Origin: a virus
Length of the DNA: 31,518 nucleotides
Direction: 5' to 3' (one strand)
UHGV virus genome: UHGV-0133195
This document shows, piece after piece, positions 1 to 31,518 of the stretch. The first letter of the stretch is position 1, and every line of letters starts with the position of its first letter. The notes beneath the pieces were generated by a model. It was not told where the DNA came from. It saw only the letters and a list, made by a program, of their open reading frames with translations, and did no database searches. A program made the translations under genes and the position numbers.

Positions 1-106
1 CTGCGCTCAGTCTCAAATTAATACAATCTGATTTTGAGTCTAACAAAGGAAAGATAAATGTCACGATATAACAAAATAGCGTAAATGTGATTTGTTACAT
101 CAAAAA

Positions 107-121
107 AACAGATTGTTTTTT
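107..121. other. Candidate attL core (left copy of 15-bp direct repeat AACAGATTGTTTTTT)
   Basis: Exact 15-bp match to 30704-30718; lies about 100 bp beyond the 3' end of the integrase gene, as expected for a P2-type int-att arrangement. Confidence 0.4.
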
Positions 122-227
122 ATGTGGTGATGAAAAATCAATGATTTACCTTTATTTTCAATTGGTTGTTTGCTAATCGGCTCTATTGAAACCTAATCAA
201 ATCTGAGTGATTGGGTCAAAATGTGGA

Positions 228-1214: not shown

Positions 1215-1353
1215 TTGTGTTACCTGGTTTGTCTGAGTTTTAGATGTTTTTAATTTCAATACACTTTTAGTTAACAAGAACATTCGTTAACCCAGAAATC
1301 ACGGTAGTGACAGATGCCACCTTTACCCCATCGTTTCATTATTTCCGAAGCAA

Positions 1354-3748: not shown

Positions 3749-3975
3749 TGGTCACAAAACTGCAGATCTCATGCGCTGCGCCGGTAGGTGTCTGCGGTCA
3801 CGCAGCTGCCGAGCTGCGCCGCTTTTCTCGCGGCGTCAAAAACTATTCCCGCATCAAACCAAATTTTTACCTGGTGATCCGCATCGGTAGGCGCTGGCGC
3901 TTGCTGAGTAAAAACGGCGGCAAGGTCTGGTCACTGATGACACATGAAAAATACAACGTTGAGAGCAAGAAATGA
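3748..3975 (+). CDS. Small hypothetical protein (75 aa) translationally coupled between two methyltransferase genes
   Basis: ATG at 3748 overlaps the upstream TGA (ATGA) and its own TGA overlaps the next ATG at 3972; Arg/Lys-rich; no recognisable motif. Confidence 0.45.
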   Translation: MVTKLQISCAAPVGVCGHAAAELRRFSRGVKNYSRIKPNFYLVIRIGRRWRLLSKNGGKVWSLMTHEKYNVESKK

Positions 3976-4862
3976 CCGCTGCTTACTACAACGAAATCGA
4001 TCCATATGCAGCCCAGTGGCTGCGCAACCTTATGGCTGCGGGGTTGATTGCCCCTGGCTTTGTTGATGAAAGGAGTATTGAAGATGTCACACCCGCCGAT
4101 CTGCGCGGATTCACTCAAGTTCACTTCTTTGCCGGGATTGGTGTTTGGTCATATGCCCTGCGCCGCGCTGGCTGGCCGGACTCCAGACCAGTCTGGACAG
4201 GTTCTTGCCCGTGCCAGCCTTTCAGCCCGGCAGGCAAGGGAAAGGGATTTACTGACGAGCGGCACTTATGGCCCGCCATGCATTGGTTGGTTGGGCAGTG
4301 CGATCCTGTCGTTATCTTTGGCGAGCAATCTGCAAGCGCTGACGCAAATGACTGGATCGACCTTGTACAAGCAGACATGGAAGCAATGGGATATGCCTTC
4401 GGGGCGTGTGCGTTTCCGTCTGCGAGCGTCGGCGCACCGCACATCCGTGACAGAGCTTACTGGGTGGCCGACACCAACCGCGAGCAATACAAAGAATGCT
4501 TACCAGGACGCGCAGAAAGTCATTGCGCGGAGGCTTGCTGGCCGTCAGTCGAACTTACAAGATTTTGCCTGTCTGGCGGGGTGGCCTACACCAGCGGCAA
4601 GGGATCACAAAGGGGGGTATCAGGGGGCAGGATGCGCAACGGGAAGCTGTCAACGGACACTCTGGATGTGGTGGCACAGATAGCAGGCCCGGCCCGGTTA
4701 ACGGTTTCTGGGGATCTGCTGACTGGTTGTTCTGCCAGGATGAAAAGTGGCGGCCAGTTGAACCCGAACTTGTCCCGCTGGTTGATGGGGTTGCCTCCAG
4801 AGTGGGACGCCTTCGCGCCTACGGAAACGCCCTCAACGTTGAAGCGGCAACAGCGTTCATAA
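3972..4862 (+). CDS. C5-cytosine DNA methyltransferase (small, phage-type)
   Basis: Motif I-like FFAGIG, motif IV GSCPCQPFSPAGKG (catalytic PCQ), motif VIII-like HIRDRAYW, motif X-like LMGLPPEWD near the C-terminus. Confidence 0.75.
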   Translation: MTAAYYNEIDPYAAQWLRNLMAAGLIAPGFVDERSIEDVTPADLRGFTQVHFFAGIGVWSYALRRAGWPDSRPVWTGSCPCQPFSPAGKGKGFTDERHLWPAMHWLVGQCDPVVIFGEQSASADANDWIDLVQADMEAMGYAFGACAFPSASVGAPHIRDRAYWVADTNREQYKECLPGRAESHCAEACWPSVELTRFCLSGGVAYTSGKGSQRGVSGGRMRNGKLSTDTLDVVAQIAGPARLTVSGDLLTGCSARMKSGGQLNPNLSRWLMGLPPEWDAFAPTETPSTLKRQQRS

Positions 4863-7917: not shown

Positions 7918-8610
7918 ATGAGTTACCTGGGAAGTAAAGCGGCCAGCGGGGTCTTTCAGAAAATCATTGCCGAAATGCCCCCGCATGATACCTACATTGA
8001 AACGCATCTGGGCAGCGGTGCGGTGATGTTCCATAAACCGCCAGCCCAGCATTCTGTCGGGATTGATATTGATTCAGCTGCATTTTCGCTGACAAGGCGG
8101 CGCTGGAAAGATAAAGGATTAACGCCCCCTGACATCCATTTCCATTATGGCGATGCTGTCAGCTTTCTGGAGGGATATTTTGATTTTGCGACTGCGGGCC
8201 GGGTACTGATTTACGCCGATCCTCCTTACATGCCGGAAACGCGCACCAGTCGCGCCCGTTATCGCCATGAATACACCGTCGCCGATCATGAGCGCCTTTT
8301 ACGTTGCCTGATGTCACTGCCGGAAAATGTGAGTGTCATTTTGTCTGGCTACCCGTCGCAGCTTTATGACAGCACGCTGACCGGCTGGCGAACGCGGGAA
8401 TTTCAGGCCATGACGCGGGGCGGTGTGCGAACGGAAAAAATCTGGATGAATTATGAGGAAGGGAAAGCCTATTCCCACACCTTTGCCGGAAAGGACTACA
8501 ACGACCGGGCCAGGATAAAACGTAAAGCGGCACGCTGGCGGGATAAGTTCGCCGCCCTGCCGCCAGCGGAACGGCTGGCAATTATGACCGCGCTTTGTGA
8601 TGTCGAATAA
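7918..8610 (+). CDS. Second Dam-like N6-adenine DNA methyltransferase (short, 230 aa)
   Basis: YLGSKAAS and THLGSGAVMF motifs followed by catalytic DPPY (YADPPYMP); GGGAAAG Shine-Dalgarno upstream. Confidence 0.8.
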   Translation: MSYLGSKAASGVFQKIIAEMPPHDTYIETHLGSGAVMFHKPPAQHSVGIDIDSAAFSLTRRRWKDKGLTPPDIHFHYGDAVSFLEGYFDFATAGRVLIYADPPYMPETRTSRARYRHEYTVADHERLLRCLMSLPENVSVILSGYPSQLYDSTLTGWRTREFQAMTRGGVRTEKIWMNYEEGKAYSHTFAGKDYNDRARIKRKAARWRDKFAALPPAERLAIMTALCDVE

Positions 8611-10021: not shown

Positions 10022-11829
10022 GCTGCTTTCCCAAAGTACCAGCCCGATGGGCGGTCATATTCGTGATCGATAGGTTCGTTAATTACGGCGTGCGAGATAG
10101 CGAAGAAAACATCTGCATGGCCGGTCGCGTCTGAACGTTCGGCAACAAACGTCAGCGCGTTGCCGCTGTTGGTTGTCGTGCGCCGGATAGCCATAAAGCT
10201 GGCCGGAATTTCGACGCGCTCCTTGTTCGTTTCGTCTACGGCGTCTTTTGCCCATTCGATGCGCTTACGCTCGACAACGTCGATCATCTTCATCACCAGG
10301 CGGTTTTTGCTTTCGACGCTGTAAAGAATGGGTGTGGCTTCGCGTGGCGCAAATTTGCTGACAAGGTCATAAACGCCTTTACCTATGCCGGTTGTATCGA
10401 TCCCGATGTAAGTGATGTTAAAGCGGCGCATAAGCTGCTTTATCTGGTCGGCCTGCCAGCTGAAGTTAAAACCCTGCCATTGCCAGACGGCCAGCACGCG
10501 GAAGCGCTCGCCGTCCTCTACAGGGGGCGCGATTAACACAAATGTTGAGTTGTCGCCGGAGCGCGACGGGTCAAAACCTGCCCATACTTCGCGATTGCCG
10601 AAGGGCCGCGCAGCGGTCAGATCAAAGTCGCCCCATGTGGCCCGGTCCACTTCACAGCCGACAAGCGCGGAGAACTTGAAAACCGCGTCCTTACTGTCAA
10701 CAAACTGGCACATGTAGAGCATGGCGAACGCGGTCGGGTTGTATTTGTTGCGCAGCCGTTCAATATCGACAAGCGCCCCGAGGCCGCCTTCGATAGCGTC
10801 TTCCATCGTGATGATGTAGCGCCAGATCTGGTCCGGGCAAAGAATGCCCTGTCGCATTTCGCTTTCGTTCGGGAACTTCACACCTTTGCGTTTCGGGTCG
10901 TCCCCGCGCCAGGCTTCGCCAGTCCAGACCGGGTAAGCCTGGTGCGTTTTCGCGCTGGGCGTCGAAAAGTAGGTCGTGCGGTATTTGTTATGCGTTGCCA
11001 TTGCGCTGGCAACTTCATGCAGGCGCGTGAATTTCGGGATCCAGAAAACCTCATCGCCATACAGGTGGCCGTTAAAGCCCTGTGAGGTACTGGCGTTCGT
11101 GGACAAAAAGCGCAGTATTGCGCCGTTACTGAGGCGGATATTTTTACCCGTCAGCGTCACGCCGAAATGGTTCTGGGCGATCTGGACGATGTATTCGCGG
11201 AAGATTTCCGACTGGGATCGGCTTGCGGAGAAAAAGACCTGGTTATCACCGGTAATGACGGCGTCTTCAAATGCTTCCCAGGCGAAATAATAGGTCATAC
11301 CCACCTGGCGGCTTTTCAGAATGAAGCGCCAGTCTTCGCCTTTATGTTCGCGGCAGTGCAGCTGGTACTCGAAGAGATGTTCCTGCGCCCAGGTGTCGAG
11401 CATTTCCGCTGTAATACCGGAAACGTCGTTTTTCTTATACCGGCGCTTTCTTTCCCCTGGTTCCCCGCCTGCGCTGCTGAGGCAGTACCCTTCACCATCA
11501 TAAGCCGCTTTCTGGGCCTGAATTTCTGCCAGCTTTTCGGCGTGCTTGTTGCGCTGCGCCATGAGTTTCACATGGTGAGCAATCAGATCGCGCAGTTCTT
11601 CCAGTTCCAGCGCTGTTTTTTTCTCGCGGCGGGAGAGCTGGTCGATACGGCGGGCGATGACATTTTCCACCGATTCAACAGGCAGCAGTGATGCCCACTT
11701 CCCGACATCAGCCCAGTGGTAAATTGTACGCGGTGGAATATTCAGTTCCTGCGCAATATCTTTCGGCGTCCAGCTTTTTATATAAAGCGTGCGGGCCGCT
11801 TCTTTTAATTCATCGGAATATTTAGCCAT
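10018..11829 (-). CDS. P: Terminase large (ATPase) subunit (P2 gpP-like)
   Basis: 603 aa; N-terminal HTH-like region and ATPase core (KSRQVGMTYYFAWEAFEDAV); transcribed divergently from the scaffold gene. Confidence 0.85.
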   Translation of the reverse strand: MAKYSDELKEAARTLYIKSWTPKDIAQELNIPPRTIYHWADVGKWASLLPVESVENVIARRIDQLSRREKKTALELEELRDLIAHHVKLMAQRNKHAEKLAEIQAQKAAYDGEGYCLSSAGGEPGERKRRYKKNDVSGITAEMLDTWAQEHLFEYQLHCREHKGEDWRFILKSRQVGMTYYFAWEAFEDAVITGDNQVFFSASRSQSEIFREYIVQIAQNHFGVTLTGKNIRLSNGAILRFLSTNASTSQGFNGHLYGDEVFWIPKFTRLHEVASAMATHNKYRTTYFSTPSAKTHQAYPVWTGEAWRGDDPKRKGVKFPNESEMRQGILCPDQIWRYIITMEDAIEGGLGALVDIERLRNKYNPTAFAMLYMCQFVDSKDAVFKFSALVGCEVDRATWGDFDLTAARPFGNREVWAGFDPSRSGDNSTFVLIAPPVEDGERFRVLAVWQWQGFNFSWQADQIKQLMRRFNITYIGIDTTGIGKGVYDLVSKFAPREATPILYSVESKNRLVMKMIDVVERKRIEWAKDAVDETNKERVEIPASFMAIRRTTTNSGNALTFVAERSDATGHADVFFAISHAVINEPIDHEYDRPSGWYFGKAA

Positions 11830-12005
11830 GCGGCTATTATGGCGGGATTATTTTGCAGAATTGATAATTAAATATCGGTAAAAAGTGGCTAACAATTTAT
11901 AACCGAATACATAAGAAATAAAGCGGTCGCGCTGTTTTAATCAATTCGCAATACTGACCACCACAAACGAATCATTGTTATTAAATTCATTATTAAAGGT
12001 CAGTT

Positions 12006-19752: not shown

Positions 19753-21867
19753 ATGAGCCACCTGGATTTTACCCTGAGCCTGATCGATAAGCTGACGCGG
19801 CCATTAAAAACGGCCCAGTCTTCGCTGTCCGGCTTTGCTGAAAAATCGCAGGCGTCTTTTACAAAAATCGGGATCGGTGCGGCGGCTGTCTGGGGCGTGG
19901 CGCAGTCTATCGCGGGCGTGGTGGGTCCGGCGTATGAGATGAACGCCGCACTTGCAGAAGTGGGTTCCAAAGGCGTGGCAGAGGACGCGCTGAAGCGTCT
20001 GTCCGGCGAGGCTATGCGATTCAGTATGCGCTACGGCAAAGGGGCCGTTGATGTGGTCCGGTCAAGCTACGCGATGAAAGGCGCAATGGCGGGCCTGTCC
20101 GATCTGGACCTGCCCCGCGTCACCATCGCGGCCAATACCCTGGCGGCAGGCGTCAAGGCCAGCGGCGAAGAGGCAGGCGAATACATCGGCGCGATGGCGT
20201 CACGTTTCAACGCGGAGTTGTCCAGTCTGGGCCATGTGCGTTTTGCCGAAGAGCTGGCAGGAAAAACCGCGTACATGGTGCAAAACTTCGGCGTGAAAAT
20301 GCAGACCATGCAGGAGCTTATCGAGGGGACGAAAAGCGCCGGTGCTGACTTTGGCGTCAGCCTGGATGAACAGTTCGCCGTCCTGGGTACGCTTTCGCGC
20401 ACGCTGGGTACTGAGGCCAGCGGGATCTACGAGCAGTTTTTACGCAGCGCTCCGGCTGCCGCTGAAAAGCTGGGGATGAGCTTTGTCGATGCCACCGGAA
20501 AAATGCTGCCGATGGGCGACATTCTGCAAAAACTCCAGAGCAAATACGGGCAGAGCATCGAAGGGAACGTCAAGGCACAACAGGCGCTGGACGCCGCGTT
20601 CGGTGGTGGTGCTGACGTTATCAAAAAGCTGTACGGCCAGCAGGATAAATTAAACCGCAGCATCACCGAGCTGGGCCGAAATGACGGGATGAAACGCGCC
20701 CAGGAAATGGCCGCACGAATGGCCGAGCCGTGGGAGCGTATCAAAGCGACATTCTTTGCCATTCGCGTGGCGATTGGTAACACGCTGATCCCTATCCTGT
20801 CGCCGCTGATGAACCGTATTGCCGACGTCGGGACAAAATTTGCCCGCTGGCTGGATATGTTCCCGAATATTGCCCGCTGGCTGGGTTACATCACCCTGGG
20901 CGTGCTGTCCTTCGGGCTGGCCGGGGCGGCGGTCAATATCGTGATGGGGGTCTTTGGTTTCACCATGATGGGGCTGGCCGCAATCGCTAAGGTGCTGGGC
21001 GGCGCATGGAAACTCCTGTTATGGACGCTCAACCTGTTGCGTCCGTCCCTGCTGACGACGCGCATCGGCCTGGCTGCATTGTGGATCCAGTCAAAATTGC
21101 TGGCGCTGTGGACGGGTATCTGCCGCATCGCGCTTGCTGCATGGAATATCGCGTTAAAGGCCGGGGCCATTGCCATGCGGGTTTACGGTGCGGCGACCAT
21201 GTTTGCCGGAGCGGCAATGCAATTCCTGATGAGTCCGATCACCCTGATTATTGCCGGGCTGGCGCTTCTGGCCGTGGGGGTCTGGTACGTCATCACTCAC
21301 TGGAAAGAACTGGCGGCAGCCGTCATGAATACGGCGGCTTTTGCCTGGGTGATGTCAGTCGCGGAACAGGTGGGCCAGGTGTTTGCGCAGGTCTGGCAGT
21401 CCATCACTGACGGCTGGGCCGTGGTGGTTGATTTCTTTGCCGGTCTTTCCCCGCTTGCCACCTTTGAAGGGTTCGCGCAGACCATCGGCGGGGTATTCAG
21501 CAAACTTTTTGACGTCCTCAAAAATACCTTTGCATCTACCTATAACTGGATTGTTGAGAAGCTAAACAAGATCCCCGGCGTCAACATCGACCTGAAAACC
21601 GTTTCGCCACCGTCAGCGGCTGCCGTTCCGGCAAACGCGGTCATTCCTGACAGTGCTGCAGGTTCGTCGAAGCTGAACAGCCCGTCCGTGCTGACGGGGA
21701 ACCGAATTAATGCAGACATCCCACGCGGCGGCCTGATGAGTCAGGTTAAAACCGACAGCAAAACCGCCGTTGATAACCGTAAATCGTGGGGCGATACCTA
21801 CATCAACGCCCCCAATGGAATCACCCCGGCCCAGTTGGCTGAATGGCAGGAGCTTAACGCAGGATGA
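19753..21867 (+). CDS. Tail tape measure protein
   Basis: 704-aa protein with Ala/Gly-rich helical regions and a long hydrophobic central segment; located after the chaperone frameshift pair. Confidence 0.85.
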   Translation: MSHLDFTLSLIDKLTRPLKTAQSSLSGFAEKSQASFTKIGIGAAAVWGVAQSIAGVVGPAYEMNAALAEVGSKGVAEDALKRLSGEAMRFSMRYGKGAVDVVRSSYAMKGAMAGLSDLDLPRVTIAANTLAAGVKASGEEAGEYIGAMASRFNAELSSLGHVRFAEELAGKTAYMVQNFGVKMQTMQELIEGTKSAGADFGVSLDEQFAVLGTLSRTLGTEASGIYEQFLRSAPAAAEKLGMSFVDATGKMLPMGDILQKLQSKYGQSIEGNVKAQQALDAAFGGGADVIKKLYGQQDKLNRSITELGRNDGMKRAQEMAARMAEPWERIKATFFAIRVAIGNTLIPILSPLMNRIADVGTKFARWLDMFPNIARWLGYITLGVLSFGLAGAAVNIVMGVFGFTMMGLAAIAKVLGGAWKLLLWTLNLLRPSLLTTRIGLAALWIQSKLLALWTGICRIALAAWNIALKAGAIAMRVYGAATMFAGAAMQFLMSPITLIIAGLALLAVGVWYVITHWKELAAAVMNTAAFAWVMSVAEQVGQVFAQVWQSITDGWAVVVDFFAGLSPLATFEGFAQTIGGVFSKLFDVLKNTFASTYNWIVEKLNKIPGVNIDLKTVSPPSAAAVPANAVIPDSAAGSSKLNSPSVLTGNRINADIPRGGLMSQVKTDSKTAVDNRKSWGDTYINAPNGITPAQLAEWQELNAG

Positions 21868-22199
21868 GTACCGAACCGTTATACATCGACCTTTTGATCA
21901 CTGACGGTGATTTCACGCTGGACAGCGGCAACGAGCCGCGCCGTTGCGATAACCGCGACAGCATCACCCAGGACATTATTCACAGCATTCTGGAAAGCGG
22001 TATCACCACCCGCCTGATCGGTGAACGCAGCCCGACAATGCGCGGTGACGTGCTGACGCAACTGTCCTTACTGGTGGAAAGCGACGAACGTCTGGTCCCA
22101 GGAACCATACTGATCACCGAAGAAACCCTTTCGCGGTTGTATGTCACGGCGGAAACCTACGATTTCGGCCCTGTCAGTACAGAGGTTAACTATGACTGA
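21864..22199 (+). CDS. Baseplate wedge protein, gpW / gp25-like (putative)
   Basis: 111-aa protein coupled (ATGA) to the tape measure stop and preceding a J-like gene, as in the P2 W-J-I-H-G order; weak by-eye similarity only. Confidence 0.4.
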   Translation: MSTEPLYIDLLITDGDFTLDSGNEPRRCDNRDSITQDIIHSILESGITTRLIGERSPTMRGDVLTQLSLLVESDERLVPGTILITEETLSRLYVTAETYDFGPVSTEVNYD

Positions 22200-23376
22200 G
22201 AAACCCGACGTTGATTTTGAAAAGGTACTGAATGACAGCGGGATGCCCGCGACAGAAGCCGAAATTACGGCAGCGTTTAAAGCCACCGTGCAGGCGGAAG
22301 GGTTTGTCACAAACACGTCGAGAATGTCACCTTTCTGGCGGCTGATTTCGAAGATTGTCACCACGCCAGTGTTATGGCTGCGTGCGGCGCTGATCGATGT
22401 GGTCCTGCGCAATATGTTTGTTGCGACGGCCACCGGTCCGATGCTGCGCCTGCTGGCCTGGGCGGTCCATATTGTGCCTAAACCGGCCAGCGCTGCCGCT
22501 GGCGTGCTGCGGTTCTACAAGCTGAACGCGGCGGATGTGGTCGTCGTGCCTGCCGGAACACTGGTGCAAACCGAGCGTATTAACGGCGTGGTTTACGTGC
22601 TGGCCGTGAATGAAGACGTGACGCTGCCTGCCGGGGTTGAAAGCGGGCTGGTTCCCGTCACGGCGACAGGCACCGGCAGCGGCTATAACCTTGCGCCTGG
22701 CTATTACCGGATCTTACCTGTTGCGGTGGCCGGGATCGCCAGCGCGGTCAATGAGGACGAATGGCTGATTACGCCAGGGGCTAACGAGGAAAGCGACGAC
22801 GAGCTGCGCGACCGCACCCGCAACCAGTTTAATCTGGTGGGGAATTACCACTCTGACGCTATCTACCGCAGCATGATTGCCAGTGTGCTGGGCCTGAGCG
22901 TTGATCGCATTTACTTTTTGCACGATGCCCCGCGCGGGCCGGGTACGGCAAATGCTTACCTGTTGCTGGACAGCGGCGAAATATCACAGCCCTTTATTGA
23001 TGCGGTTAACGATTATGTGAATACCCAGGGCCACCACGGACACGGTGATGATCTGCAGTGTTATGCCATGCCGGAAACCAGCCACACCCTGGCGGTAACG
23101 GTATACGTCAAAAGCGTGGAAAACATGGAAGCGGAAGACCTGAGCGCGTTAAAAACCGGTATTACCGACCTGATTCGTTGCGCGTTTCGCGAGAACGCCA
23201 ATTACGACGTTAAAAAGACGCAGCCCTATTCGCGCTATTCCTTTTCGAATCTGGGCCGCGAGATCCACAAGGCTTTTCCGGTTGTCGATTCACTGCATTT
23301 TTCACTGACAGATATTGTCAGCGAACTGTCGGTTCCGCGCCTGTCAGGGTTAACGGTGGAGATTGAAAATGACTGA
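22192..23376 (+). CDS. Baseplate protein, gpJ-like
   Basis: 394 aa from ATG at 22192 (the track ORF starts at 22141), overlapping the upstream stop; position before the gpI-like and fiber genes. Confidence 0.55.
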   Translation: MTEKPDVDFEKVLNDSGMPATEAEITAAFKATVQAEGFVTNTSRMSPFWRLISKIVTTPVLWLRAALIDVVLRNMFVATATGPMLRLLAWAVHIVPKPASAAAGVLRFYKLNAADVVVVPAGTLVQTERINGVVYVLAVNEDVTLPAGVESGLVPVTATGTGSGYNLAPGYYRILPVAVAGIASAVNEDEWLITPGANEESDDELRDRTRNQFNLVGNYHSDAIYRSMIASVLGLSVDRIYFLHDAPRGPGTANAYLLLDSGEISQPFIDAVNDYVNTQGHHGHGDDLQCYAMPETSHTLAVTVYVKSVENMEAEDLSALKTGITDLIRCAFRENANYDVKKTQPYSRYSFSNLGREIHKAFPVVDSLHFSLTDIVSELSVPRLSGLTVEIEND

Positions 23377-23962
23377 GTTTTCGAAGTTGCTTGCCGGTCT
23401 GAAATTGCCGTCGTGGCTGAACAAAGGCGACCCCGCAAGGCTGCTGCGGGCCTGCGTGAATTTCTGGTCGCAGGTGTACGGGTGGATCACCTGGCCGTTA
23501 AAGCAGTTTGACCCGCTGGTCTGCCCCGAACCGCTGTTAAACCTGATTGCCTGGGAACGCGACATCGATCGGTTTAAGGGGGAGCCGCTCGACATCTTCC
23601 GCAAACGGGTGAGTTACGCATTCATCAATGCGCAGCAGGCCGGAGAGGTGGCGGGCTTTATTGCCATTTTTGAGCGACTGGGGATTGGTTACGTTGAATT
23701 ACTGGAACGGCAGGACGGACTCGACTGGGACGTGATCGTCGTTCGGGTGACAAACAGCCAGATTGCGGAAAATGGTGATCTCCTGCTGGAAATCATCCGC
23801 AAATACGGGCGCACATGCCGCCGTTACCAGTTTGAAGTGATCACCGCCCTGCCGCTGAATATCAATATTGGCTGGTATCAGGGGGAATATATTTGCTGGC
23901 CTGCCACCCTGGGCGATGTGATTAACCAGCCCGAGGCAACGTACAGCGCAAGTTTGAAGTAG
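23369..23962 (+). CDS. Baseplate / tail protein, gpI-like
   Basis: About 197 aa from ATG at 23369 (the track uses a TTG at 23363); immediately precedes the tail fiber gene. Confidence 0.5.
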   Translation: MTEFSKLLAGLKLPSWLNKGDPARLLRACVNFWSQVYGWITWPLKQFDPLVCPEPLLNLIAWERDIDRFKGEPLDIFRKRVSYAFINAQQAGEVAGFIAIFERLGIGYVELLERQDGLDWDVIVVRVTNSQIAENGDLLLEIIRKYGRTCRRYQFEVITALPLNINIGWYQGEYICWPATLGDVINQPEATYSASLK

Positions 23963-23973
23963 AGGGAAGACCT

Positions 23974-25977
23974 ATGTCACAGGCCGTTATTACAAAAGTA
24001 TTTTCAGAATGGAAAGCCCAGCAGGCAATTAATAATCAGCCCGTCACGCTGGATGAATTTATTTTCGCATATATTCCGGGGCTGGATGCTGATAAGCCGA
24101 TTGATAATACCGAGACAACACCCGCAGCGGATAAAATTGTTTGTCGTCAGGCTGTGAGCAAATCCGGCGTTGTGAATGAAAATTCTGTCGTTTATTCCGT
24201 CACCCTGGGGGCGGATGTGGGCGATTTTGATTTCAACTGGATCGGTCTGGCAAATAAAGCCACCGGTACACTGGCGATGATTATTCACGCCCCGACCCAG
24301 CGCAAAATCAAAAATGCGAACGGCCAGCAGGGAAACGTGCTGGTTCGTTCCATGCTGATGGAATACAGCGGAGCCAGGGAAGCAACGGAAATTACCACCC
24401 CGGCAGAAACATGGCAGATTGATTTTACTGCCCGTCTGGCGGCAATGGATGAACGCCAGCGCCGCGAAAATATCGATCTGTATGGCGCAGCGGCATTTTT
24501 TGATTCTGGCTATCTGGTCGCAAAGTCCGGTAATCAGTTCTTTGTCACAAAGGGGGCGGGATACGTCGCCGGGTTACGTGCTGAACTGCCCGCAGACCTG
24601 AACATCAACGCAGCCGCGAAGCCGACAAAGGTCTGGCTTGATGTCAGCTGGACCGGGACGTTAACGAGCGAATGGGTAGTACAGAGCAAAATTACCGTTG
24701 CTGCAGATCTTGCCGATTATGTGCTGGGCGGTGTGCAGCATTATGTCTTTGCGGTGGCGAGTATTGATGCTGCCGGAAATATCACGGACCTGCGCCCGAA
24801 AGGCACGCTTAACGACCAGGCGGCCAGTGATGCACTGAGAAAGCATGAACAGTCCCGAAATCACCCTGATGCCACGACCAGCGAGAAAGGATTCACCCAG
24901 TTAAGCAGTGCAACGGATAGTACCAGCGAAGAACTGGCCGCTACATTGAAAGCGGTTAAAATCGCGATGGATAACGCCAACGCGCGTCTTGCAAAAGAGC
25001 GTAACGGTGGAGACATTCCTAATCCAGCCTTGTTTGTTCAAAACATTGGTTTGCAGGAAACAGTTAACAAGGCCGCCGGAGCAGTGCAGCGAAGTGAGGT
25101 CCAGACTTCGCAGGATGATGTTACTGCCGGAAAATTGCTGGTTAATGGTAGCGCTATTGCTGTTCGTAGCATCAGTGCAATCAATGAAGGACAGGTAGAC
25201 GATGCTAATAACCTTCCGGTTAATGCAGTATCGTTTGTCTATGGTGATGCCAAAAACTCACCGAGTGGAAATACAGGGACCATCCTGGATGTTTCCGGGC
25301 TTGGTAGCGGTTATAGCATCCAGCTATTCGCTAACTACTCAACAGGCGAAATACTGGCGTTTCGTGCGCGTAATGGTGATAACAGAACATGGAATAAATG
25401 GAATTTTGTGTTTCACACTGGAAATAAACCAACCTCTACAGATGTGGGTGCGCTACCTATAACAGGTGGTAATTTAAAGGGGCAACTTTCCTTTTCATTC
25501 TCACAACCCAGAAATGGCGCTAACCACTTAATATACAACGGCGATGATAAAGGAATACTGGCTTGCGGATATGGTTATTATCAGGACAGATTTGATATTC
25601 ATTTTTATGATGAAAAAGGTGCGTGGGAATCAAATCCATTAACCATTGGGCGCAATGGAAATACGACAGTTAGTGGTAATTTGTCAGGGCGTGCTGTTTA
25701 TGAAGGTAACATTCGCGTTTATTCACCAAACAACCCGCAGCCCGTTAGCTTTGAAGGTTATGCGACGCAAAGCTGGGTATTGCAGAACTTTGTCCAGAAT
25801 ATCGACCTGACTGCGCCTACTGAATTTCAGTTTTGGGATGGACGGGGTTACATGCGGGCGACTGATGGTGCGGCTATGTATAACTTTTCAATGGTGGGCG
25901 GTTCCAGCAACGTTGGCTGGATTCAGATCCGCTATACACGAAAACTGGTGAATAACACCTGGTATGTAATTAATTAA
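23974..25977 (+). CDS. Tail fiber protein (gpH-like) with compositionally distinct C-terminal receptor-binding region
   Basis: 667-aa protein followed by a fiber assembly gene; the 3' third is visibly AT-rich relative to the 5' part. Confidence 0.8.
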   Translation: MSQAVITKVFSEWKAQQAINNQPVTLDEFIFAYIPGLDADKPIDNTETTPAADKIVCRQAVSKSGVVNENSVVYSVTLGADVGDFDFNWIGLANKATGTLAMIIHAPTQRKIKNANGQQGNVLVRSMLMEYSGAREATEITTPAETWQIDFTARLAAMDERQRRENIDLYGAAAFFDSGYLVAKSGNQFFVTKGAGYVAGLRAELPADLNINAAAKPTKVWLDVSWTGTLTSEWVVQSKITVAADLADYVLGGVQHYVFAVASIDAAGNITDLRPKGTLNDQAASDALRKHEQSRNHPDATTSEKGFTQLSSATDSTSEELAATLKAVKIAMDNANARLAKERNGGDIPNPALFVQNIGLQETVNKAAGAVQRSEVQTSQDDVTAGKLLVNGSAIAVRSISAINEGQVDDANNLPVNAVSFVYGDAKNSPSGNTGTILDVSGLGSGYSIQLFANYSTGEILAFRARNGDNRTWNKWNFVFHTGNKPTSTDVGALPITGGNLKGQLSFSFSQPRNGANHLIYNGDDKGILACGYGYYQDRFDIHFYDEKGAWESNPLTIGRNGNTTVSGNLSGRAVYEGNIRVYSPNNPQPVSFEGYATQSWVLQNFVQNIDLTAPTEFQFWDGRGYMRATDGAAMYNFSMVGGSSNVGWIQIRYTRKLVNNTWYVIN

Positions 25978-25989
25978 AGGTAAATAAAA

Positions 25990-26526
25990 ATGCAGAGCTT
26001 CGGCAAATTCACCCCATATATGCCAGACACTACTGACAGACCAAAAATTATTGATGGTCAGAACGTTATGTTTTTGCAGGATGACAAAGGTAATGACTGG
26101 TATGACGTTATTAAGTTATTTGATGAATCAAAGACACTAAAAATTGGCTATGACGATGATGGCCGTGTAAGAACATTCACAACGAATATTCATGCCTTTT
26201 TCCCGGTCAATATGAGCGTTGTTGAGCTTTCAGCAACAAAAGCTAATTTGCGCGTCGCGCTGGGCGATGACTGGTTTTATAAAGACGGGAAACTGCAGCA
26301 AATCCGCGATCACCAGGCTAACGCTGAGGCCGAACGTAACAGCCGTATGGCGGACGTTACAACGCGGATTGACTGGCTGGAAGATGCGCAGAAGGACGGC
26401 GATATCTCAGCCGACGAAGAAAAAGAACTGGCAACACTGCGGGCTTATCGCACCGAGTTGCGTCGTCTTGATCTGGCTGGTGCGCCAGATATTGACTGGC
26501 CGGAGGTTCCGGGCGATGTGGCGTGA
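25990..26526 (+). CDS. Tail fiber assembly protein (Tfa, gpG-like)
   Basis: 178-aa protein directly after the fiber gene; AT-rich 5' portion continuous with the fiber 3' end, then a GC-rich 3' portion. Confidence 0.7.
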   Translation: MQSFGKFTPYMPDTTDRPKIIDGQNVMFLQDDKGNDWYDVIKLFDESKTLKIGYDDDGRVRTFTTNIHAFFPVNMSVVELSATKANLRVALGDDWFYKDGKLQQIRDHQANAEAERNSRMADVTTRIDWLEDAQKDGDISADEEKELATLRAYRTELRRLDLAGAPDIDWPEVPGDVA

Positions 26527-27238
26527 ATCGGTTGTAAAGATTGCTGACGATATGGGGGCGCTGGCCTGTTCCATTGTGCCAGCGCATCCCTGGGTTTACG
26601 GGCTGGGACAGAACACGGATTCAGGCGGTTATCTTAGTCCGGCCAATGCGATGGGGTATCTTGCTAAAAAGCTGTTATCCGGTGGCGGTAGCGGTGACGT
26701 CATCGTCATGATGGTGGCGGAAAATACCCATGACGCTTTTATGCAGGGACTGAATAAACTGTCCACCGTATTTCCGGCCCCGGTATTTACACAGGTAAGC
26801 CGCATGGCCGCCGCCGCCGCAGAACTCAGCACGGTAAAAATGCAGTTGCCGGTTAAAGCCGATGTATTGCCAGCCAGTGCGCCGTTATCCGTTTCAACCA
26901 ACCGGCTGGCGCTGAATGCCCAGCGTGTTGCCGCCGCGCAGCTGGCCGCCGCAGTCAGTACCACCACAACAGATCTAAAAAATCAGGTTACGGGATTTAT
27001 TCAGGAACGGGCCGGTTTGCTGGCATCACTCAGCCAGGGACTGGACGACCTGAAAGCCGCCAGCGCGAACATTTTTTCATTCAGTTACAGCGGAAGTTAT
27101 GCCGTTGCTGCCGCTGAATTGCTGAAAGGCATCCCGCAAACAACGGCAGTGCATACTGCCGCGATGATGTTTATCGGGGATTCGTTATCTGACTTAGGGA
27201 AGATGCTACATGAGCCAGACCGCATTACTCGCGCTTGA
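26516..27238 (+). CDS. Hypothetical protein (240 aa), Ala-rich, function unknown
   Basis: ATG at 26516 overlapping the tfa stop (the track ORF starts at 26219); no recognisable catalytic motif. Confidence 0.5.
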   Translation: MWRESVVKIADDMGALACSIVPAHPWVYGLGQNTDSGGYLSPANAMGYLAKKLLSGGGSGDVIVMMVAENTHDAFMQGLNKLSTVFPAPVFTQVSRMAAAAAELSTVKMQLPVKADVLPASAPLSVSTNRLALNAQRVAAAQLAAAVSTTTTDLKNQVTGFIQERAGLLASLSQGLDDLKAASANIFSFSYSGSYAVAAAELLKGIPQTTAVHTAAMMFIGDSLSDLGKMLHEPDRITRA

Positions 27239-27752
27239 TGGTGAAGGGATCGCCATGCAGAACATGCTGGTTTCACCCTCTATGCAGTTTCAGGAGAAGG
27301 ACCAGTCGGGCCAGACATCGAGCACGGCCAATGCTGAACAGGGTATCAAGGCCAAAGAGCTGCGCGTGTCGGGTCTGGTGACATTTGACGACGAAGCCGT
27401 CTTACAGCGGCTTTTCCAGCTGGCATCCGCAACCGAAGCCAGCGGCGCGTTAAAAAAGTACCGCGTCGCCAATGCGACGGCGACGGCTATCAACCTTCGC
27501 GAAGCCACGTTCACCGGTCAGATTGATGCCGTACCGCAGGAGGATCGCCTTGCCTGGCAGGTAAGTTTCACCCTGCGTGAAAAAGGCAGCGTCCCGGAAA
27601 AACGACAGGCCCGAAAAGGCAACGCGACGGCCAGCACCAAGCAAACAGGGGCAAAGGGCGCGGGTCCGGCTGCCGGTGCTGATGAACCAGCCGACAAAAT
27701 GAGCTGGTTTGAAGAAAAAGTCTTAAAGCCGGTCAACGATGCGCTGGGGTAA
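27210..27752 (+). CDS. Hypothetical protein (180 aa), possibly tail-associated
   Basis: ORF overlapping the previous gene by 29 nt, immediately upstream of the hub-spike gene; a gpU-like tail terminator role is possible by position only. Confidence 0.4.
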   Translation: MSQTALLALDGEGIAMQNMLVSPSMQFQEKDQSGQTSSTANAEQGIKAKELRVSGLVTFDDEAVLQRLFQLASATEASGALKKYRVANATATAINLREATFTGQIDAVPQEDRLAWQVSFTLREKGSVPEKRQARKGNATASTKQTGAKGAGPAAGADEPADKMSWFEEKVLKPVNDALG

Positions 27753-27759
27753 TTAAACG

Positions 27760-29484
27760 ATGAAACCAATTAAACGCCTGTACCTTTCCTCTGATCCGGT
27801 CCATCTGATTGACTGCAATATCGTGCTGGAGCTGAACGCGTGCGGTCGGGGGTTTATTACGGCGGGGACAGAGACAGATTACACCGGCAAAATGGTGCGG
27901 ATCGATGTTGGTTATGATGGTCTGGTCCTGCGCTGGTTTACCGGGTATGTCGAACGGTCACAGCCTGCTGATAATGGAACATGCCGGTTGTTCGTGCGTG
28001 AGCTGATCGGCATCTTTGATAAATTGTGGCCGTGTTCTTTCCAGCATCCAACGCTTCGCCAGATTACTGACTGGATAAGTGAGCAAAGCGGGCTGGCCGT
28101 CACAACGCCGGTCGGCGCTGCTTATGCAGATAAACCGATCCCCCATTTTACGCACAGCGGAACGGGCTATCAGCTTCTTGCCAGTCTGGGCCGCGCATTT
28201 ACAGTGACGGATTATCTTTGGTATCAGCTGCCGGACGGGGACGTCTTCGTCGGCGCTGCGGAGCACAGTCTTTTTGCGGGTAAGCCAGTGGAGATCCCGC
28301 ACGAATTTAGCCAGGCATCGGCGGGCGGTAATTCAATGGTTGTGCCGATGATTCAGAGCCTGCGACCAGGTGCGGAAGTGAACGGCCAGCGGGTGAATCA
28401 GGTCCGGCTAAATAACGACGACATGGCAATTACCTGGCAGCCTCGCAACAAAGCCACCGGCCAGCCATTGCAAAAATCACCGATTCAGCGGCAGATAGAA
28501 AACGCATTCCCGGAGCTGGCAAGCGGCCTGCATCTTCCAAAATTCGCCAGGGTGGAAGCACCAAGCGAGGATGTATCAGGGGGGAATATTGCCGATCCAT
28601 TCCGCCCGCGCTATGCCGTGGATCTCCAGCTGCTTGACGAAGACGGCAAGCCAGCCGCAAATACGCCGGTCTATTCTGCCGTTCCGCTACCTGTACCAAT
28701 GGCGGGCAGCGAGTCGGGAATGTTTCAGTTTCCGCCCCCTGGCACGCTGGTTGAAGTTGGATTCACTGAGGGACGGCAGGATAAGCCCTTTGTGCGCCAG
28801 ATTATGGCGGAGGGTCATAACCTGCCAGCGGTTAAACCCGGCGAGCAGTTGCAGCAACAGCGCGATGGTGTATCGCAGCGCGTGACGGTTGCCGGAGACT
28901 GGGAACGCCAGACGGACCAGACAATCCGCGAAAACTCCATGACTCGCGAAGTCACCACCGACGAAGAGATCCGCAAAGTGGTTGTCCGTGAAACTACGGT
29001 CCAGGCAACGGATAAAACAACCGTGCTTGGCACGGCCACACTTCTGGCCGGGGCGGTGGTCCATATCAGCGAGGGGGATTACAGCGTCGGCACATCCGGC
29101 AACCTGACAGTAACCTGCAGCAAGGACAATTCCGTCAGTGTTGGCCGGAACGTGAAACGGGACGTCGCGGGCAATGTAACAGACGACGTAAAAGGGAATG
29201 TCACGTCAAACGTCAGCGGCGCACTGACCGAAAAAATCAGCGGTATCCGCCGAAGTGTGGCCAAGGCGCAACAGATGATTGCCCCGGTGGTAAAACTGGG
29301 AAGCGAAGAGATTAACGTCCTGACACTACTCACCGACACCCTGGACGTGGTGAGGGAACTGGCAGAGACTGCCGCGTCACATACTCACCCCAATACAGGG
29401 GCCAGCGGGCAGGCTGCGCAGTTCACCGCAACGGCCACTAAAACCGGCACATTGAAAAGCAAATACGGTCCCCTGATAGCCTGA
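27760..29484 (+). CDS. Baseplate hub-spike protein (VgrG-like architecture)
   Basis: 574 aa; central segment MFQFPPPGTLVEVGFTEGRQDKPFV resembles the gpV/gp5 OB-fold signature; downstream repetitive GNVTDDVKGNVTSNVSG (beta-helix-like) and C-terminal SHTHPN (HxH, as at the P2 gpV spike apex). Confidence 0.55.
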   Translation: MKPIKRLYLSSDPVHLIDCNIVLELNACGRGFITAGTETDYTGKMVRIDVGYDGLVLRWFTGYVERSQPADNGTCRLFVRELIGIFDKLWPCSFQHPTLRQITDWISEQSGLAVTTPVGAAYADKPIPHFTHSGTGYQLLASLGRAFTVTDYLWYQLPDGDVFVGAAEHSLFAGKPVEIPHEFSQASAGGNSMVVPMIQSLRPGAEVNGQRVNQVRLNNDDMAITWQPRNKATGQPLQKSPIQRQIENAFPELASGLHLPKFARVEAPSEDVSGGNIADPFRPRYAVDLQLLDEDGKPAANTPVYSAVPLPVPMAGSESGMFQFPPPGTLVEVGFTEGRQDKPFVRQIMAEGHNLPAVKPGEQLQQQRDGVSQRVTVAGDWERQTDQTIRENSMTREVTTDEEIRKVVVRETTVQATDKTTVLGTATLLAGAVVHISEGDYSVGTSGNLTVTCSKDNSVSVGRNVKRDVAGNVTDDVKGNVTSNVSGALTEKISGIRRSVAKAQQMIAPVVKLGSEEINVLTLLTDTLDVVRELAETAASHTHPNTGASGQAAQFTATATKTGTLKSKYGPLIA

Positions 29485-29550
29485 CAAAAAGCGGCATAAC
29501 CGCACACCTCACCAGACACCACAGAACGCGCCACAACAGGCGCAAATATT

Positions 29551-29580
29551 AAAGGCCGCCACCGTGCGGCCTTTCTTTCG
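29551..29580 (+). terminator. Rho-independent terminator after the tail operon
   Basis: Stem AAAGGCCGC / GCGGCCTTT with 6-nt loop CACCGT followed by a T-rich tract (TTTCTTTCG). Confidence 0.6.
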
Positions 29581-29688
29581 TTCGTTCAACAGCGGCCCAC
29601 AGCGTAAGCGACAGCAGGCAGGCGGAAGCGGATCCAGGACGGAAACGGCGCTACACCGCACCCGCCTGCGCAGTTTGGATCATAAAAA

Positions 29689-29800
29689 TTTTGCAAAGGA
29701 AATTTTGTGCAAAGTACCCCGCCAGCCTGCGACGCTGCTGGGCTTTTGCATCCTGCGGGCGTTTGCACGCTGCGCAAAGATTTGCAGCACTTTGCAAAAG
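29689..29800. repeat. Array of TTTGCA / TTTGCAAA motifs, including four tandem 10-bp units
   Basis: Palindromic TTTGCAAA at 29690-29697 and 29791-29798 (third copy at 29970-29977, outside this span); TTTGCA at 29745-29750, 29762-29767 and 29781-29786; decamers gTTTGCAcgc / TGCGCAaaga / TTTGCAgcac / TTTGCAaaag at 29761-29800. Confidence 0.5.
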
Positions 29801-29993
29801 TCACCGCGCCGCCAGTTGCTAACCGACTGGATAACATGATGTTTTTAAAAGGATCGTTTTAGTTTCCGTCACGATCAAATGCGGCTAGGGGTTGTATGGG
29901 AATATTTGGCGGGAATTCTGCGAAGCCTTGCGGCGCAAGGCTTTAGGGGGAAAACTTCATGATTTGGGTTTTGCAAAATAATGCTAAGAAGGA

Positions 29994-30524
29994 TCAATCA
30001 GGTAGGCGGCCTTTAGTCACCTCAAAATCAATCAGTTTGTTTGTTTTCGTATCAAGTGTACAAGAATACGTCATATTAACTTTGGCGTTAAAACCATTGG
30101 TAAATTTCAGCTTATCGCCCACATAAACAATCTGGTTCTGTTCCGGTTTGTTAATGTACCGACTAAAGATATTTTCAAATGCACCATTGGTCCATTCGAA
30201 ATCATACTTTGAAGTTTTCTCAATAGGGCTTTTACAGGCTACCAAAGCATCAACCAAATGGGCTTCAAAAATACACTGCCCATCATTCTTATCACACACC
30301 TTAACTTTTGGCTCATCTTTGGCCGTTGCCTCTTCATCACCGCTGAAATACCAGTAACCAATCCCAGCCAGCACTAAGAGAACGATAAAACCGCCAAACG
30401 CATCGCTTGCTTTGACGCCTGGATTTTTGACACCACAATGAGGGCATGTCTTTGCCTTGGATGAAATCTCTTTTTTACACTCTTTACACTTAACCAATGC
30501 CATCTGATAAACCATCCTTTTCAT
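29994..30524 (-). CDS. AT-rich cargo gene: N-terminal zinc-ribbon, single transmembrane helix, C-terminal domain of unknown function
   Basis: CKECKK ... CPHCG zinc ribbon, hydrophobic helix FGGFIVLLVLAGIGYWYF, then about 110 aa with conserved Cys; visibly lower G+C than the phage genes; first ATG at 30524 (the track start at 30536 is a TTG). Confidence 0.55.
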   Translation of the reverse strand: MKRMVYQMALVKCKECKKEISSKAKTCPHCGVKNPGVKASDAFGGFIVLLVLAGIGYWYFSGDEEATAKDEPKVKVCDKNDGQCIFEAHLVDALVACKSPIEKTSKYDFEWTNGAFENIFSRYINKPEQNQIVYVGDKLKFTNGFNAKVNMTYSCTLDTKTNKLIDFEVTKGRLPD

Positions 30525-30703
30525 CTGGATAACCAAGAAACCGAAGTCTAACGGCTACGTGCATTCAGGAAAAGGAAAAAGCCCAGCAGTATCTGCAAGG
30601 CTTTGAGTTGGTATCACAAGGACTAACACTTCGACGTGGTCATTTTGTGGACCTATTAATATAAAAATCAATTAAAATCAATGTGTTATGTTGAATGTAA
30701 AAT

Positions 30704-30718
30704 AACAGATTGTTTTTT
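30704..30718. other. Candidate attR core (right copy of 15-bp direct repeat)
   Basis: Exact copy of 107-121; immediately adjacent to the stop codon (30719-30721) of the MurR/RpiR-family gene. Confidence 0.4.
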
Positions 30719-31468
30719 TTACGCTATTCTTTTCGCCAGCTTGCGACCGAGTGATTCCAGAATATAAATAACGGGGATCTGCGTGGTTATATCGTATACC
30801 CCGGCAATACGTGTTTGTGGAACATGCCAGGAGAGGTTAAAGTCGGCGAGTTTCGCCAGGCGAGAGTGTTCATGGCTGGTGACCGACAGAACCTTACAGT
30901 TGTGCAGACTGAACTGGCTGGCAAAGCGCAGGATCTCTTCTGTTTCACCAGATACGGAAAGCACGATCGCCAGCGCGTTTCTGGCCATGTCGTTAGTGAC
31001 CGGGAAATAAGGATCGTCAATGTGATTACTGAATTTACCGACGTTTGAGAAAAAACGTGCGCCATATTTTGCCAACGCTCCAGACGTTCCTGCTCCGACG
31101 AATATAATACGTTCGGACGATAATATAATATCAACAGCCTGATCGAGCAGTTTATCGAACTCGTCGTTATTGACGCCTTTAAAGAAACTGATAATTTCGC
31201 TGGCACCGAAATTAGCCTGTTGCGGTTCATTCTGCTCTAAATATAATTTGAAGCGCACGCGAAATTCTGAGTAACCTTCACATTTAAGCTTGCGGCAAAA
31301 GCGCAGTACGGTGGTAGTAGAAACACCCACGGCATCGGCCAGCTCGCGAATGGTCATGTACATGACTTTGTCACGGTTTTTGATGACATAGTTGTAGACC
31401 AGCATCTCAAGATTGTTGAGACTGGCGATGGCAGCGTGGGAGAACATACTCACAATGGCAAAACTCAC
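30719..31468 (-). CDS. MurR/RpiR-family transcriptional regulator (HTH plus SIS domain), probable host gene
   Basis: N-terminal HTH region (TIRELADAVGVSTTTVLRFCRKL) and SIS sugar-phosphate-binding region (IIFVGAGTSGALA); the true start may be an internal Met (for example MFSHAAIASL). Confidence 0.8.
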   Translation of the reverse strand: MSFAIVSMFSHAAIASLNNLEMLVYNYVIKNRDKVMYMTIRELADAVGVSTTTVLRFCRKLKCEGYSEFRVRFKLYLEQNEPQQANFGASEIISFFKGVNNDEFDKLLDQAVDIILSSERIIFVGAGTSGALAKYGARFFSNVGKFSNHIDDPYFPVTNDMARNALAIVLSVSGETEEILRFASQFSLHNCKVLSVTSHEHSRLAKLADFNLSWHVPQTRIAGVYDITTQIPVIYILESLGRKLAKRIA

Positions 31469-31518
31469 TCATCAGACTTCATCTACAGGGAATAATAACA
31501 TGCAGCCAAATGACATCA

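Follow-up and report, generated by a model that had tools for sequence, protein, structure and literature searches.

The window analysed here is a 31,518-nt stretch of viral DNA (UHGV virus genome UHGV-0133195), in which annotation of the open reading frames (ORFs) with Pfam and PHROG identified a complete prophage of ~29.7 kb. In its tail region, a tract of low guanine-plus-cytosine content (G+C) spans the 3′ part of the tail fibre gene and the 5′ part of the adjoining tail fibre assembly gene (tfa). From comparison with related prophages, this tract is very probably a host-range module built by recombination from a shared gene pool, with at least three blocks that have separate histories. 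The module would comprise the distal half of the fibre together with Tfa, equivalent to Sv-U of phage Mu and to the 3′ half of H plus G in phage P2, and would have been produced by repeated homologous recombination with a gene pool common to many enterobacterial phages, the joints sitting in short motifs that are conserved across otherwise unrelated alleles. A preliminary description of this DNA had proposed one horizontally exchanged cassette at 24960–26230, i.e., a receptor-binding tip together with the part of its chaperone that recognises it. The exchange is borne out by the comparisons below, whereas the single unit gives way to at least three blocks.

The genes and sub-modules concerned are:

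23974–25977, plus strand: tail fibre gene, 667 amino acids (aa; ORF list, PF12571, PF03406 and PHROG tail-fibre families)
23974–24833, plus strand: backbone-type part of the fibre, shared with phage SI7 and Escherichia coli prophages (0.88–1.00 identity per 50 nt to L001/L002)
24834–24948, plus strand: left transition zone within the Phage_fiber_2 repeat, where backbone-type similarity fades and cassette-type similarity starts
24949–25619, plus strand: sub-module A, the middle of the distal half of the fibre (aa ~326–549, G+C ~0.45)
25620–25731, plus strand: internal junction zone, at which the matching relatives change from A-type to B-type; it ends with RVYSPNNPQP, which is nearly invariant
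25732–26184, plus strand (start ~25620/25732): sub-module B, comprising the terminal tip (last ~82 aa), the spacer and Tfa residues 1–65, and holding the G+C minimum
26185–26470, plus strand: sub-module C, the conserved part of Tfa (aa 66 to ~160; G+C 0.54–0.56, backbone-like)
25990–26526, plus strand: tfa, tail fibre assembly chaperone, 178 aa (PF02413, Caudo_TAP, E 2e-21; PHROG 136)
26516–27238, plus strand: first backbone gene downstream, 240 aa, whose ATG at 26516 overlaps the tfa stop; SI7 gp22 and its E. coli homologue occupy this position

Breakpoints against backbone relatives

On either side of the module, the prophage closely matches Salmonella phage SI7 (Peduoviridae, Irrigatiovirus), with 95.2% identity over 20500–25019, 96.0% over 26463–29500 and the same gene order, and prophages in 19 E. 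coli genomes match both flanks of the tail region at a similar ~95%. By sliding identity, SI7 and the E. coli prophage match at 0.88–1.0 up to ~24830 and at ~0.6 by ~24910; nothing is alignable between ~25020 and 26450, and identity is at least 0.98 again from 26470–26500, with backbone similarity resuming at ~26463–26470. Position 25019, where the BLAST extension ends, was rejected as the left breakpoint, as backbone similarity by sliding identity has already gone at ~24900. Within the transition zone (24834–24948), SI7 drops from 0.88 to 0.6 in identity, and L004, a classical P2-like prophage of Citrobacter freundii, climbs from 0.7 to 1.0.

At the protein level, the fibre is ~95% identical to that of SI7 over aa 1–300, ~65% over aa 300–358 and unrelated over the remainder, and Tfa is unalignable with its SI7 counterpart as DNA, the two proteins sharing 37% aa identity across their final 67 residues. 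Compared with SI7 and the E. coli relatives, the replaced segment is the entire distal half of the fibre plus nearly all of tfa. This goes beyond the first 240 nt of tfa that had been assigned to the cassette. A separate search with the module, which had been suggested as a way to find donor phages, was of limited use when made with the module DNA alone, as the reference collections were nearly empty in this respect: the only phage recovered was Citrobacter phage Chris1 (49% coverage, 80% identity) and E. coli genomes gave short fragments only. The informative module relatives, e.g., L004, came from protein-guided look-ups.

Block structure of the module

Sibling prophages that share the backbone and occur in Citrobacter (L006–L008) are 97.6% identical to the window over 20000–29879. 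Differences between L006 and the window are concentrated in one block, with 98 mismatches in the 565 nt of 25620–26184, compared with 2 in the 671 nt of 24949–25619 and 2 in the 342 nt from 26185 (Fisher tests of mismatch density against the two sides, p = 6e-33 and 2.5e-19); a further 11 fall in the 65 nt of 24884–24948. The divergent block takes in ~118 codons at the 3′ end of the fibre gene and 65 at the 5′ end of tfa, with 66–92% identity in 25732–26184, and is thus an exchange of a tip together with the chaperone part proposed to recognise it. L009, also from Citrobacter and on the same backbone, shows the reciprocal pattern: it is divergent from 24834 and unalignable over 25020–25713, its alignment restarts at 25714 and is clean from 25732, only 3 mismatches are found in 25732–26184, and it differs from the window only in 24834–25731. 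L006 differs in the B region and L009 in the A region. Taken with the similar flanks and unalignable middle seen against SI7 and the E. coli prophages, this demonstrates that fibre and tfa have no single shared history, as had been predicted. Block A itself has ~0.60–0.68 identity to SI7, the E. coli prophages and L009 from ~24900, and is unalignable with them from 25020.

Receptor-binding tips are often under diversifying selection, so a divergent tip could have arisen in place by accelerated point mutation, through a diversity-generating retroelement or positive selection. Such an origin is extremely unlikely for the window. The codon differences between L006 and the window in 25620–26184 are mainly synonymous (52 synonymous vs 26 non-synonymous), which points to replacement by an old allele and not to local hypermutation. 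Furthermore, near-identical copies of each block are found in other prophages and on other backbones, and no reverse transcriptase turned up among the ORFs scanned with Pfam.

The proposal of a single cassette, transferred at 24960–26230 in one event from one low-G+C donor phage, draws on the contiguity of the low-G+C tract and on L004, which aligns over all of 24904–26512. The match of L004 to the window is restricted to this interval, its gene order 3′ of the fibre and Tfa genes being sheath, tube, E/E′, tape measure, U, D and Ogr. However, the identity of L004 is stepped, at ~97% (94–100%) over 24949–25600, ~87% to 26280 and ~72% beyond; L006 and L009 are each ~100% identical in one half and different in the other; and against SI7 the replacement runs to ~26465, not 26230. 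A single event is therefore improbable, and recombination in at least three blocks is the preferred explanation.

The interval 25500–25800 is closest (0.94–1.0) to L005, an invertible-segment prophage of Citrobacter braakii. Block C is ~99–100% identical to L006 and L009 and 72–78% identical to P2-like and invertible-type prophages, and its allele is specific to the Citrobacter lineage. Sorting of 114 loci into backbone classes according to the genes on their flanks placed the window's type of N-terminal Tfa part (Tfa-N; aa identity of at least 89%) in four of them, i.e., Irrigatiovirus-like, a second HP1-like lineage, P2-like and invertase-bearing Chris1-like prophages; in the second HP1-like lineage the downstream gene is just ~49% identical to that of the window.

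Each joint coincides with a conserved feature. The left joint is the Phage_fiber_2 repeat and the 'NG.DIPN..LF.QN.GL' junction, which carries a crossover-site relic. The A/B joint lies at the motif RVYSPNNPQP ... ATQ.WVLQNFVQNI, also an inverted repeat within the Chris1 segment, and the B/C joint is at tfa codon 65, just 5′ of a 'SVVEL' segment that is conserved even in Mu U. On the right, the backbone joint falls in the last ~20 tfa codons, which overlap the start of the next gene. Alignment with related prophages, which had been recommended for locating breakpoints, thus places them at ~24834–24949, 25620–25731, 26185 and ~26463–26470.

Co-variation of the fibre tip and Tfa

Co-variation was analysed in 63 non-redundant fibre/Tfa pairs and in a 40-member family, taking the last 80 fibre residues as the tip, residues 1–65 as Tfa-N and, for the locus set, the last 100 aa, which lie inside block C, as Tfa-C. 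The tip co-varied strongly with Tfa-N when Tfa-C was controlled for (partial Mantel r = 0.73 for all pairs and 0.81 for the family, p ≤ 5e-4), compared with r = 0.18 (all pairs) and 0.00 (family) for the tip and Tfa-C controlling for Tfa-N. Its correlation with the fibre segment adjoining on the other side was r = 0.22–0.25, and given this weak coupling to the adjacent mid-fibre segment, plain linkage is not the whole explanation. Tfa-C identity was 0.87 within backbone classes vs 0.78 between them; no class effect was observed for the tip, Tfa-N or mid-fibre. A joint inside tfa is also seen in another pair of prophages, L072 and L004, both P2-like and 96% identical downstream, in which homology restarts 219–222 nt into tfa (codon ~74); the tips of the two share 0.40 identity, the Tfa-N parts 0.29 and the Tfa-C parts 0.90.

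In Mu, as summarised in PMC9608196 (citing North et al. 2019), the N-terminal domain of Tfa is variable and binds the distal fibre, while the C-terminal domain is conserved, and engineered chimeric P2 fibres have been supplied with the chaperone U/U′ cognate to the grafted tip (PMC9942202). From this literature on Mu Tfa and the co-variation above, we infer a functional coupling of the tip and Tfa-N; block B would then move as a unit, most likely since the tip has to be bound by the N part of the Tfa that assists its folding.

Several observations weigh against this reading. Physical linkage alone would favour co-variation of the tip with the adjacent Tfa-N over the distant Tfa-C, and the weak mid-fibre coupling argues against pure linkage but is no proof of functional co-adaptation. 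Both the joints (codons 65–74) and the G+C step (codons ~80–87) lie 5′ of the predicted start of the C domain (~aa 95–105), and with joints 25–35 residues 5′ of that domain, the exchanged piece would be only about the first two-thirds of the N part of Tfa. This N domain is itself poorly modelled, with a predicted local distance difference test score (pLDDT) of <50 in AlphaFold2. Finally, Tfa-N is more conserved (0.89–1.0) than the tip (0.74–0.99) in this allele family, and tip variation therefore does not always need a change in Tfa-N.

A more elaborate proposal is that the joint at tfa codon ~65–75 ('SVVEL') is a maintained docking point, at which a cassette of tip and Tfa-N plugs into a backbone-specific C part of Tfa that co-evolves through contact with the backbone, with the persistent G+C trough around Tfa-N in unrelated alleles reflecting a long-lived pool that evolves separately and circulates between phages. 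We consider this version doubtful.

G+C content of the module

Computation ruled out a uniform profile and confirmed the low G+C that had been judged by eye. The G+C of 24960–26230 is 0.435, compared with a mean of 0.554 (standard deviation 0.026, minimum 0.467) for windows of the same length in the prophage body (2000–29900) outside the tract, i.e., z = -4.5. In 200-nt windows, G+C falls from 0.50–0.55 before 24900–25000 to 0.40–0.42 at 25300–25700, rises briefly to 0.485 at 25700–25900, reaches its minimum of 0.37 at 26000–26199 and steps up to 0.535–0.575 from 26200 onward, within tfa, where a return to phage-typical values had been described. A two-change-point likelihood fit over 23000–28000 placed the low block at 25131–26249, with G+C of 0.42 inside vs 0.54 outside. 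Of the two edges proposed, the right one (26230, 240 nt into tfa) was recovered as a sharp step at ~26200–26250, whereas the left one is a gradient with no step.

The drop is mostly synonymous. At third codon positions, the distal half of the fibre has a G+C of 0.40 and the 5′-terminal 240 nt of tfa one of 0.41, compared with 0.55 in the remaining tfa and 0.62–0.70 in the neighbouring tail genes. In the fibre, the drop falls on codon positions 1 and 3 and not on position 2, which is unchanged at 0.44 in both halves. In the N part of Tfa, second-position G+C is lower (0.30 vs 0.43), so amino-acid composition contributes there.

Across the 63 fibre/Tfa pairs, median G+C is 0.52 in the proximal fibre, 0.47 in the mid-distal fibre, 0.47 in the tip, 0.39 in Tfa-N, 0.50 in Tfa-C and 0.55 downstream, and the same profile is present in alleles just 20–35% identical to that of the window. 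SI7 and the E. coli prophage likewise have a dip where the tip meets Tfa-N, to 0.42–0.44. However, G+C of the distal half of the fibre is 0.54 in SI7 and 0.51 in the E. coli prophage, compared with 0.45 in the window. The narrow junction dip is general to the gene pool, the 1.2-kb breadth of the trough being a trait of the Citrobacter alleles.

These data bear on a further explanation, in which low G+C is a local compositional property, arising from amino-acid content, expression or mutational bias, that is unrelated to exchange. The recurrence of the trough in 63 pairs of unrelated types, and between tip and Tfa-N in both SI7 and the E. coli prophage, would fit this explanation, as would the low second-position G+C of Tfa-N (0.30). 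It is nevertheless highly improbable, as the identity discontinuities reveal exchange independently of composition, the drop in the fibre is at codon positions 1 and 3 and not 2, and the distal fibre of SI7 is at 0.54 where the window is at 0.45, at the same position and on the same backbone, so that part of the trough belongs to the allele. Under exchange with a shared pool, low G+C would be a property of the circulating genes, mainly synonymous and strongest around the tip/Tfa-N junction. Since the dip is found in nearly all fibre/Tfa pairs whatever their sequence type, it would mark this pool and not a recent donor, and the dip at the tip/Tfa-N junction is no evidence of recent foreign origin. 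Homologues of Tfa-C are also found in Xenorhabdus, Photorhabdus, Yersinia, Arsenophonus and Sodalis, which is consistent with circulation through lower-G+C hosts.

Other compositional features were observed in the window. The N-terminal half of the fibre (23974–25019) has a third-position G+C of 0.53, below that of the surrounding tail genes (0.62–0.70), and a dip to 0.445 at 24000–24199 is matched by a similar one in SI7 and the E. coli prophage where the fibre gene begins. Low G+C is also found at the left end of the window (1–500, including the 3′ end of the integrase gene; 0.38) and at 11501–12000 (0.45), the latter a divergent intergenic region between the terminase and scaffold genes.

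A degenerate crossover site at the constant/variable junction

The constant/variable junction of the fibre family in the window carries one further feature:

25034–25059, plus strand: single degenerate Mu-like inversion crossover (gix/cix-type) site, TTGTTCAAAACATTGGTTTGCAGGAA

This site aligns with the annotated 'Mu-like inversion crossover site' in gene K of phage 186, the inverted repeat in S of Mu/D108 and both inverted repeats of Chris1. It was accepted after alignment with these annotated sites and not from a search for the generic invertase core motif AAACCNNGGTTT, which gave 24 matches vs 17.4 expected, i.e., not above chance. Similarity to SI7 ends at the centre of the site.

The module could therefore be a relic of, or have been loaded by, an invertible segment of the Gin/Cin/Min type, with site-specific recombination setting its left boundary. 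In addition to the homology of 25034–25059 to the sites of 186 K, Mu/D108 and Chris1 and its coincidence with the end of SI7 similarity, close homologues of blocks B and C lie within invertase-flanked segments of Chris1-like Citrobacter prophages, and such a role of crossover sites was proposed by Sandmeier, as cited in PMC8986868. However, an inverted partner of the site was not found in 24500–27800, and for the invertase itself there was no tblastn match in the window to that of L005 and no resolvase domain in Pfam scans of the larger ORFs. The genes 3′ of tfa are backbone genes, including a baseplate gene, and not an alternative inverted tip, and the joints to the closest relatives fall at 24834–24949, 25620–25731 and 26185, none of them at the site. 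Without an invertase or an inverted partner, 25034–25059 is a relic or a shared junction motif and not a working switch, and an origin in an invertible segment is rather unlikely compared with homologous recombination at the conserved motifs.

Some related loci have more than one Tfa gene. In L068 (IMG/VR UViG 2869455143_000004), L049, L055 and L057 there are two or three, lying in both orientations and each paired with an alternative tip of its own. This arrangement suggests that Citrobacter prophages have multi-cassette inversion regions like p15B Min.

Fibre, Tfa and the downstream gene

The fibre begins with an N-terminal collar/shaft domain (PF12571, aa 3–157, E 1e-31) and carries the Phage_fiber_2 repeat (PF03406) at aa 301–341 (nt 24874–24996, E 2e-18). 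Residues 303–375 match residues 115–187 of Mu S (phmmer; PDB 8ju3_A, E 2e-28; 5yvq_A, E 2e-26), and this Mu S-like segment after the repeat agrees nearly residue for residue and covers the constant/variable boundary. The distal fibre profile aligns with Mu S′, with a terminal N.TWY motif common to both. Two proteins combine such a tip with a part from another family: P0066 (C. freundii, 372 aa, annotated as 'portal protein') joins a portal-family N-terminal part to a fibre tip, its last 67 residues being ~94% identical to the tip in the window, and P0074 combines a terminase-family match with a tip. They may be remnants of prophages that were joined through a deletion, or else artefacts of gene calling.

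Tfa residues 12–174 match Mu U (PDB 5yvq_B, E 3e-12), and in the AlphaFold2 model a confident helical hairpin spans aa 105–159. The PHROG sub-families of Tfa split at ~aa 90–105, and at deep divergence identity is 0.28–0.46 in the N part and 0.62–0.77 in the C part. The C-terminal tails vary among relatives (WPEVPGDVA, WPEVPDVA and WPDAPA). The frame of the downstream gene is open for 99 codons 5′ of its ATG (26219–26515; listed ORF 26219–27238), overlapping the GC-rich part of tfa. As this open stretch starts where G+C rises, it probably results from base composition and does not represent overlapping coding sequence.

Prophage organisation and host

The remaining genes of the prophage are arranged as follows:

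228–1283, minus strand: integrase
after the integrase: early genes, i.e., a repressor-like helix-turn-helix gene, then two DNA methyltransferases and a GPA-type replication gene
minus strand: portal and terminase
after portal and terminase: head, lysis and tail genes, with the tape measure at 19753–21867
3′ of the tape measure and 5′ of the fibre: DUF2590, then baseplate J and I homologues
3′ of the 240-aa gene: HP1_ORF34-type baseplate protein, then hub protein ending at 29484

The gene order is HP1-like, and the prophage is an HP1/P2-like temperate myovirus (Peduoviridae). In its early region (2765–3748, 3972–4862 and 7918–8610), a full D12-class N6-adenine methyltransferase and a C5-cytosine methyltransferase are accompanied by a third ORF with a partial D12-class match. 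Similarity to the E. coli prophages stops at ~29879; in the flank 29600–31518 their match is limited to the first 280 nt, which are still phage, and no tRNA was found in this flank.

The host is most likely Citrobacter, as the closest relatives of the fibre tip and Tfa are nearly all annotated as the Citrobacter freundii complex, and the closest Tfa among species-representative genomes is that of Citrobacter meridianamericanus BR102. At least 24 contigs carry the exact 667-aa fibre protein on the same prophage backbone. Its chromosomal context is of two kinds, one beside an rpiR-like/SIS gene (29880–31518 of the window, and L117) and the other beside fieF-pfkA (L118, L006), which suggests that the phage has recently been mobile and integrates at two sites, or that a single site holds a variable island.

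Significance and comparison with known systems

Exchange of the fibre tip with its chaperone is the main route of host-range change for temperate and therapeutic phages, and the rule that a tip travels with its chaperone is also used to engineer chimeric P2 or Mu fibres. The locus provides an unusually clean natural map of such exchange, with units of 450–670 nt, four conserved bounding motifs, reciprocal recombinants and a joint at tfa codons 65–74, and this map could help to decide where to place the fusions in engineered Citrobacter-directed fibres. The phenomenon itself is the known mosaicism of host-range modules of the Mu S-U and P2 H-G type, and no new principle is involved.

The G segment of Mu (Sv/S′v with U/U′; PDB 5YVQ, 8JU3) resembles the module in combining a variable fibre end with its own chaperone, and both fibre and Tfa are homologous. 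It differs in that the unit in the window is fixed in one orientation, without an invertase, a second crossover site or an alternative tip, so that variation arises within a genome by inversion in Mu but between genomes by recombination in the window. Invertible multi-cassette fibre regions with an invertase and oppositely oriented tip/tfa pairs, neither of which the window has, are also found in the C segment of P1, p15B Min and Chris1. Chris1-like prophages nevertheless share with the window tips and Tfa that are 80–100% identical in patches to blocks B and C, and inverted repeats homologous to 25034–25090.

Closer parallels are the 3′ half of H plus G in P2 and K in phage 186, which are likewise non-invertible P2-family fibres with mosaic distal parts and chaperones common to unrelated phages; 186 K also has a relic of a Mu-like crossover site at the homologous position, and the P2-like C. 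freundii prophage has a copy of the module at 90–97% identity. Haggard-Ljungquist et al. 1992 (listed in PMC9594776) concerns, by its title, the horizontal transfer of tail fibre genes among unrelated phages. The window differs from P2 and 186 in having baseplate and hub genes 3′ of fibre and Tfa, not sheath and tube, and in its Citrobacter-specific allele. Finally, the Irrigatiovirus phages SI7, SW3 and SW5 and E. coli prophages of the same type share with the window ~95% nucleotide identity and gene order on both sides of the module, whereas their distal fibre halves and Tfa are unrelated to those of the window at the DNA level.

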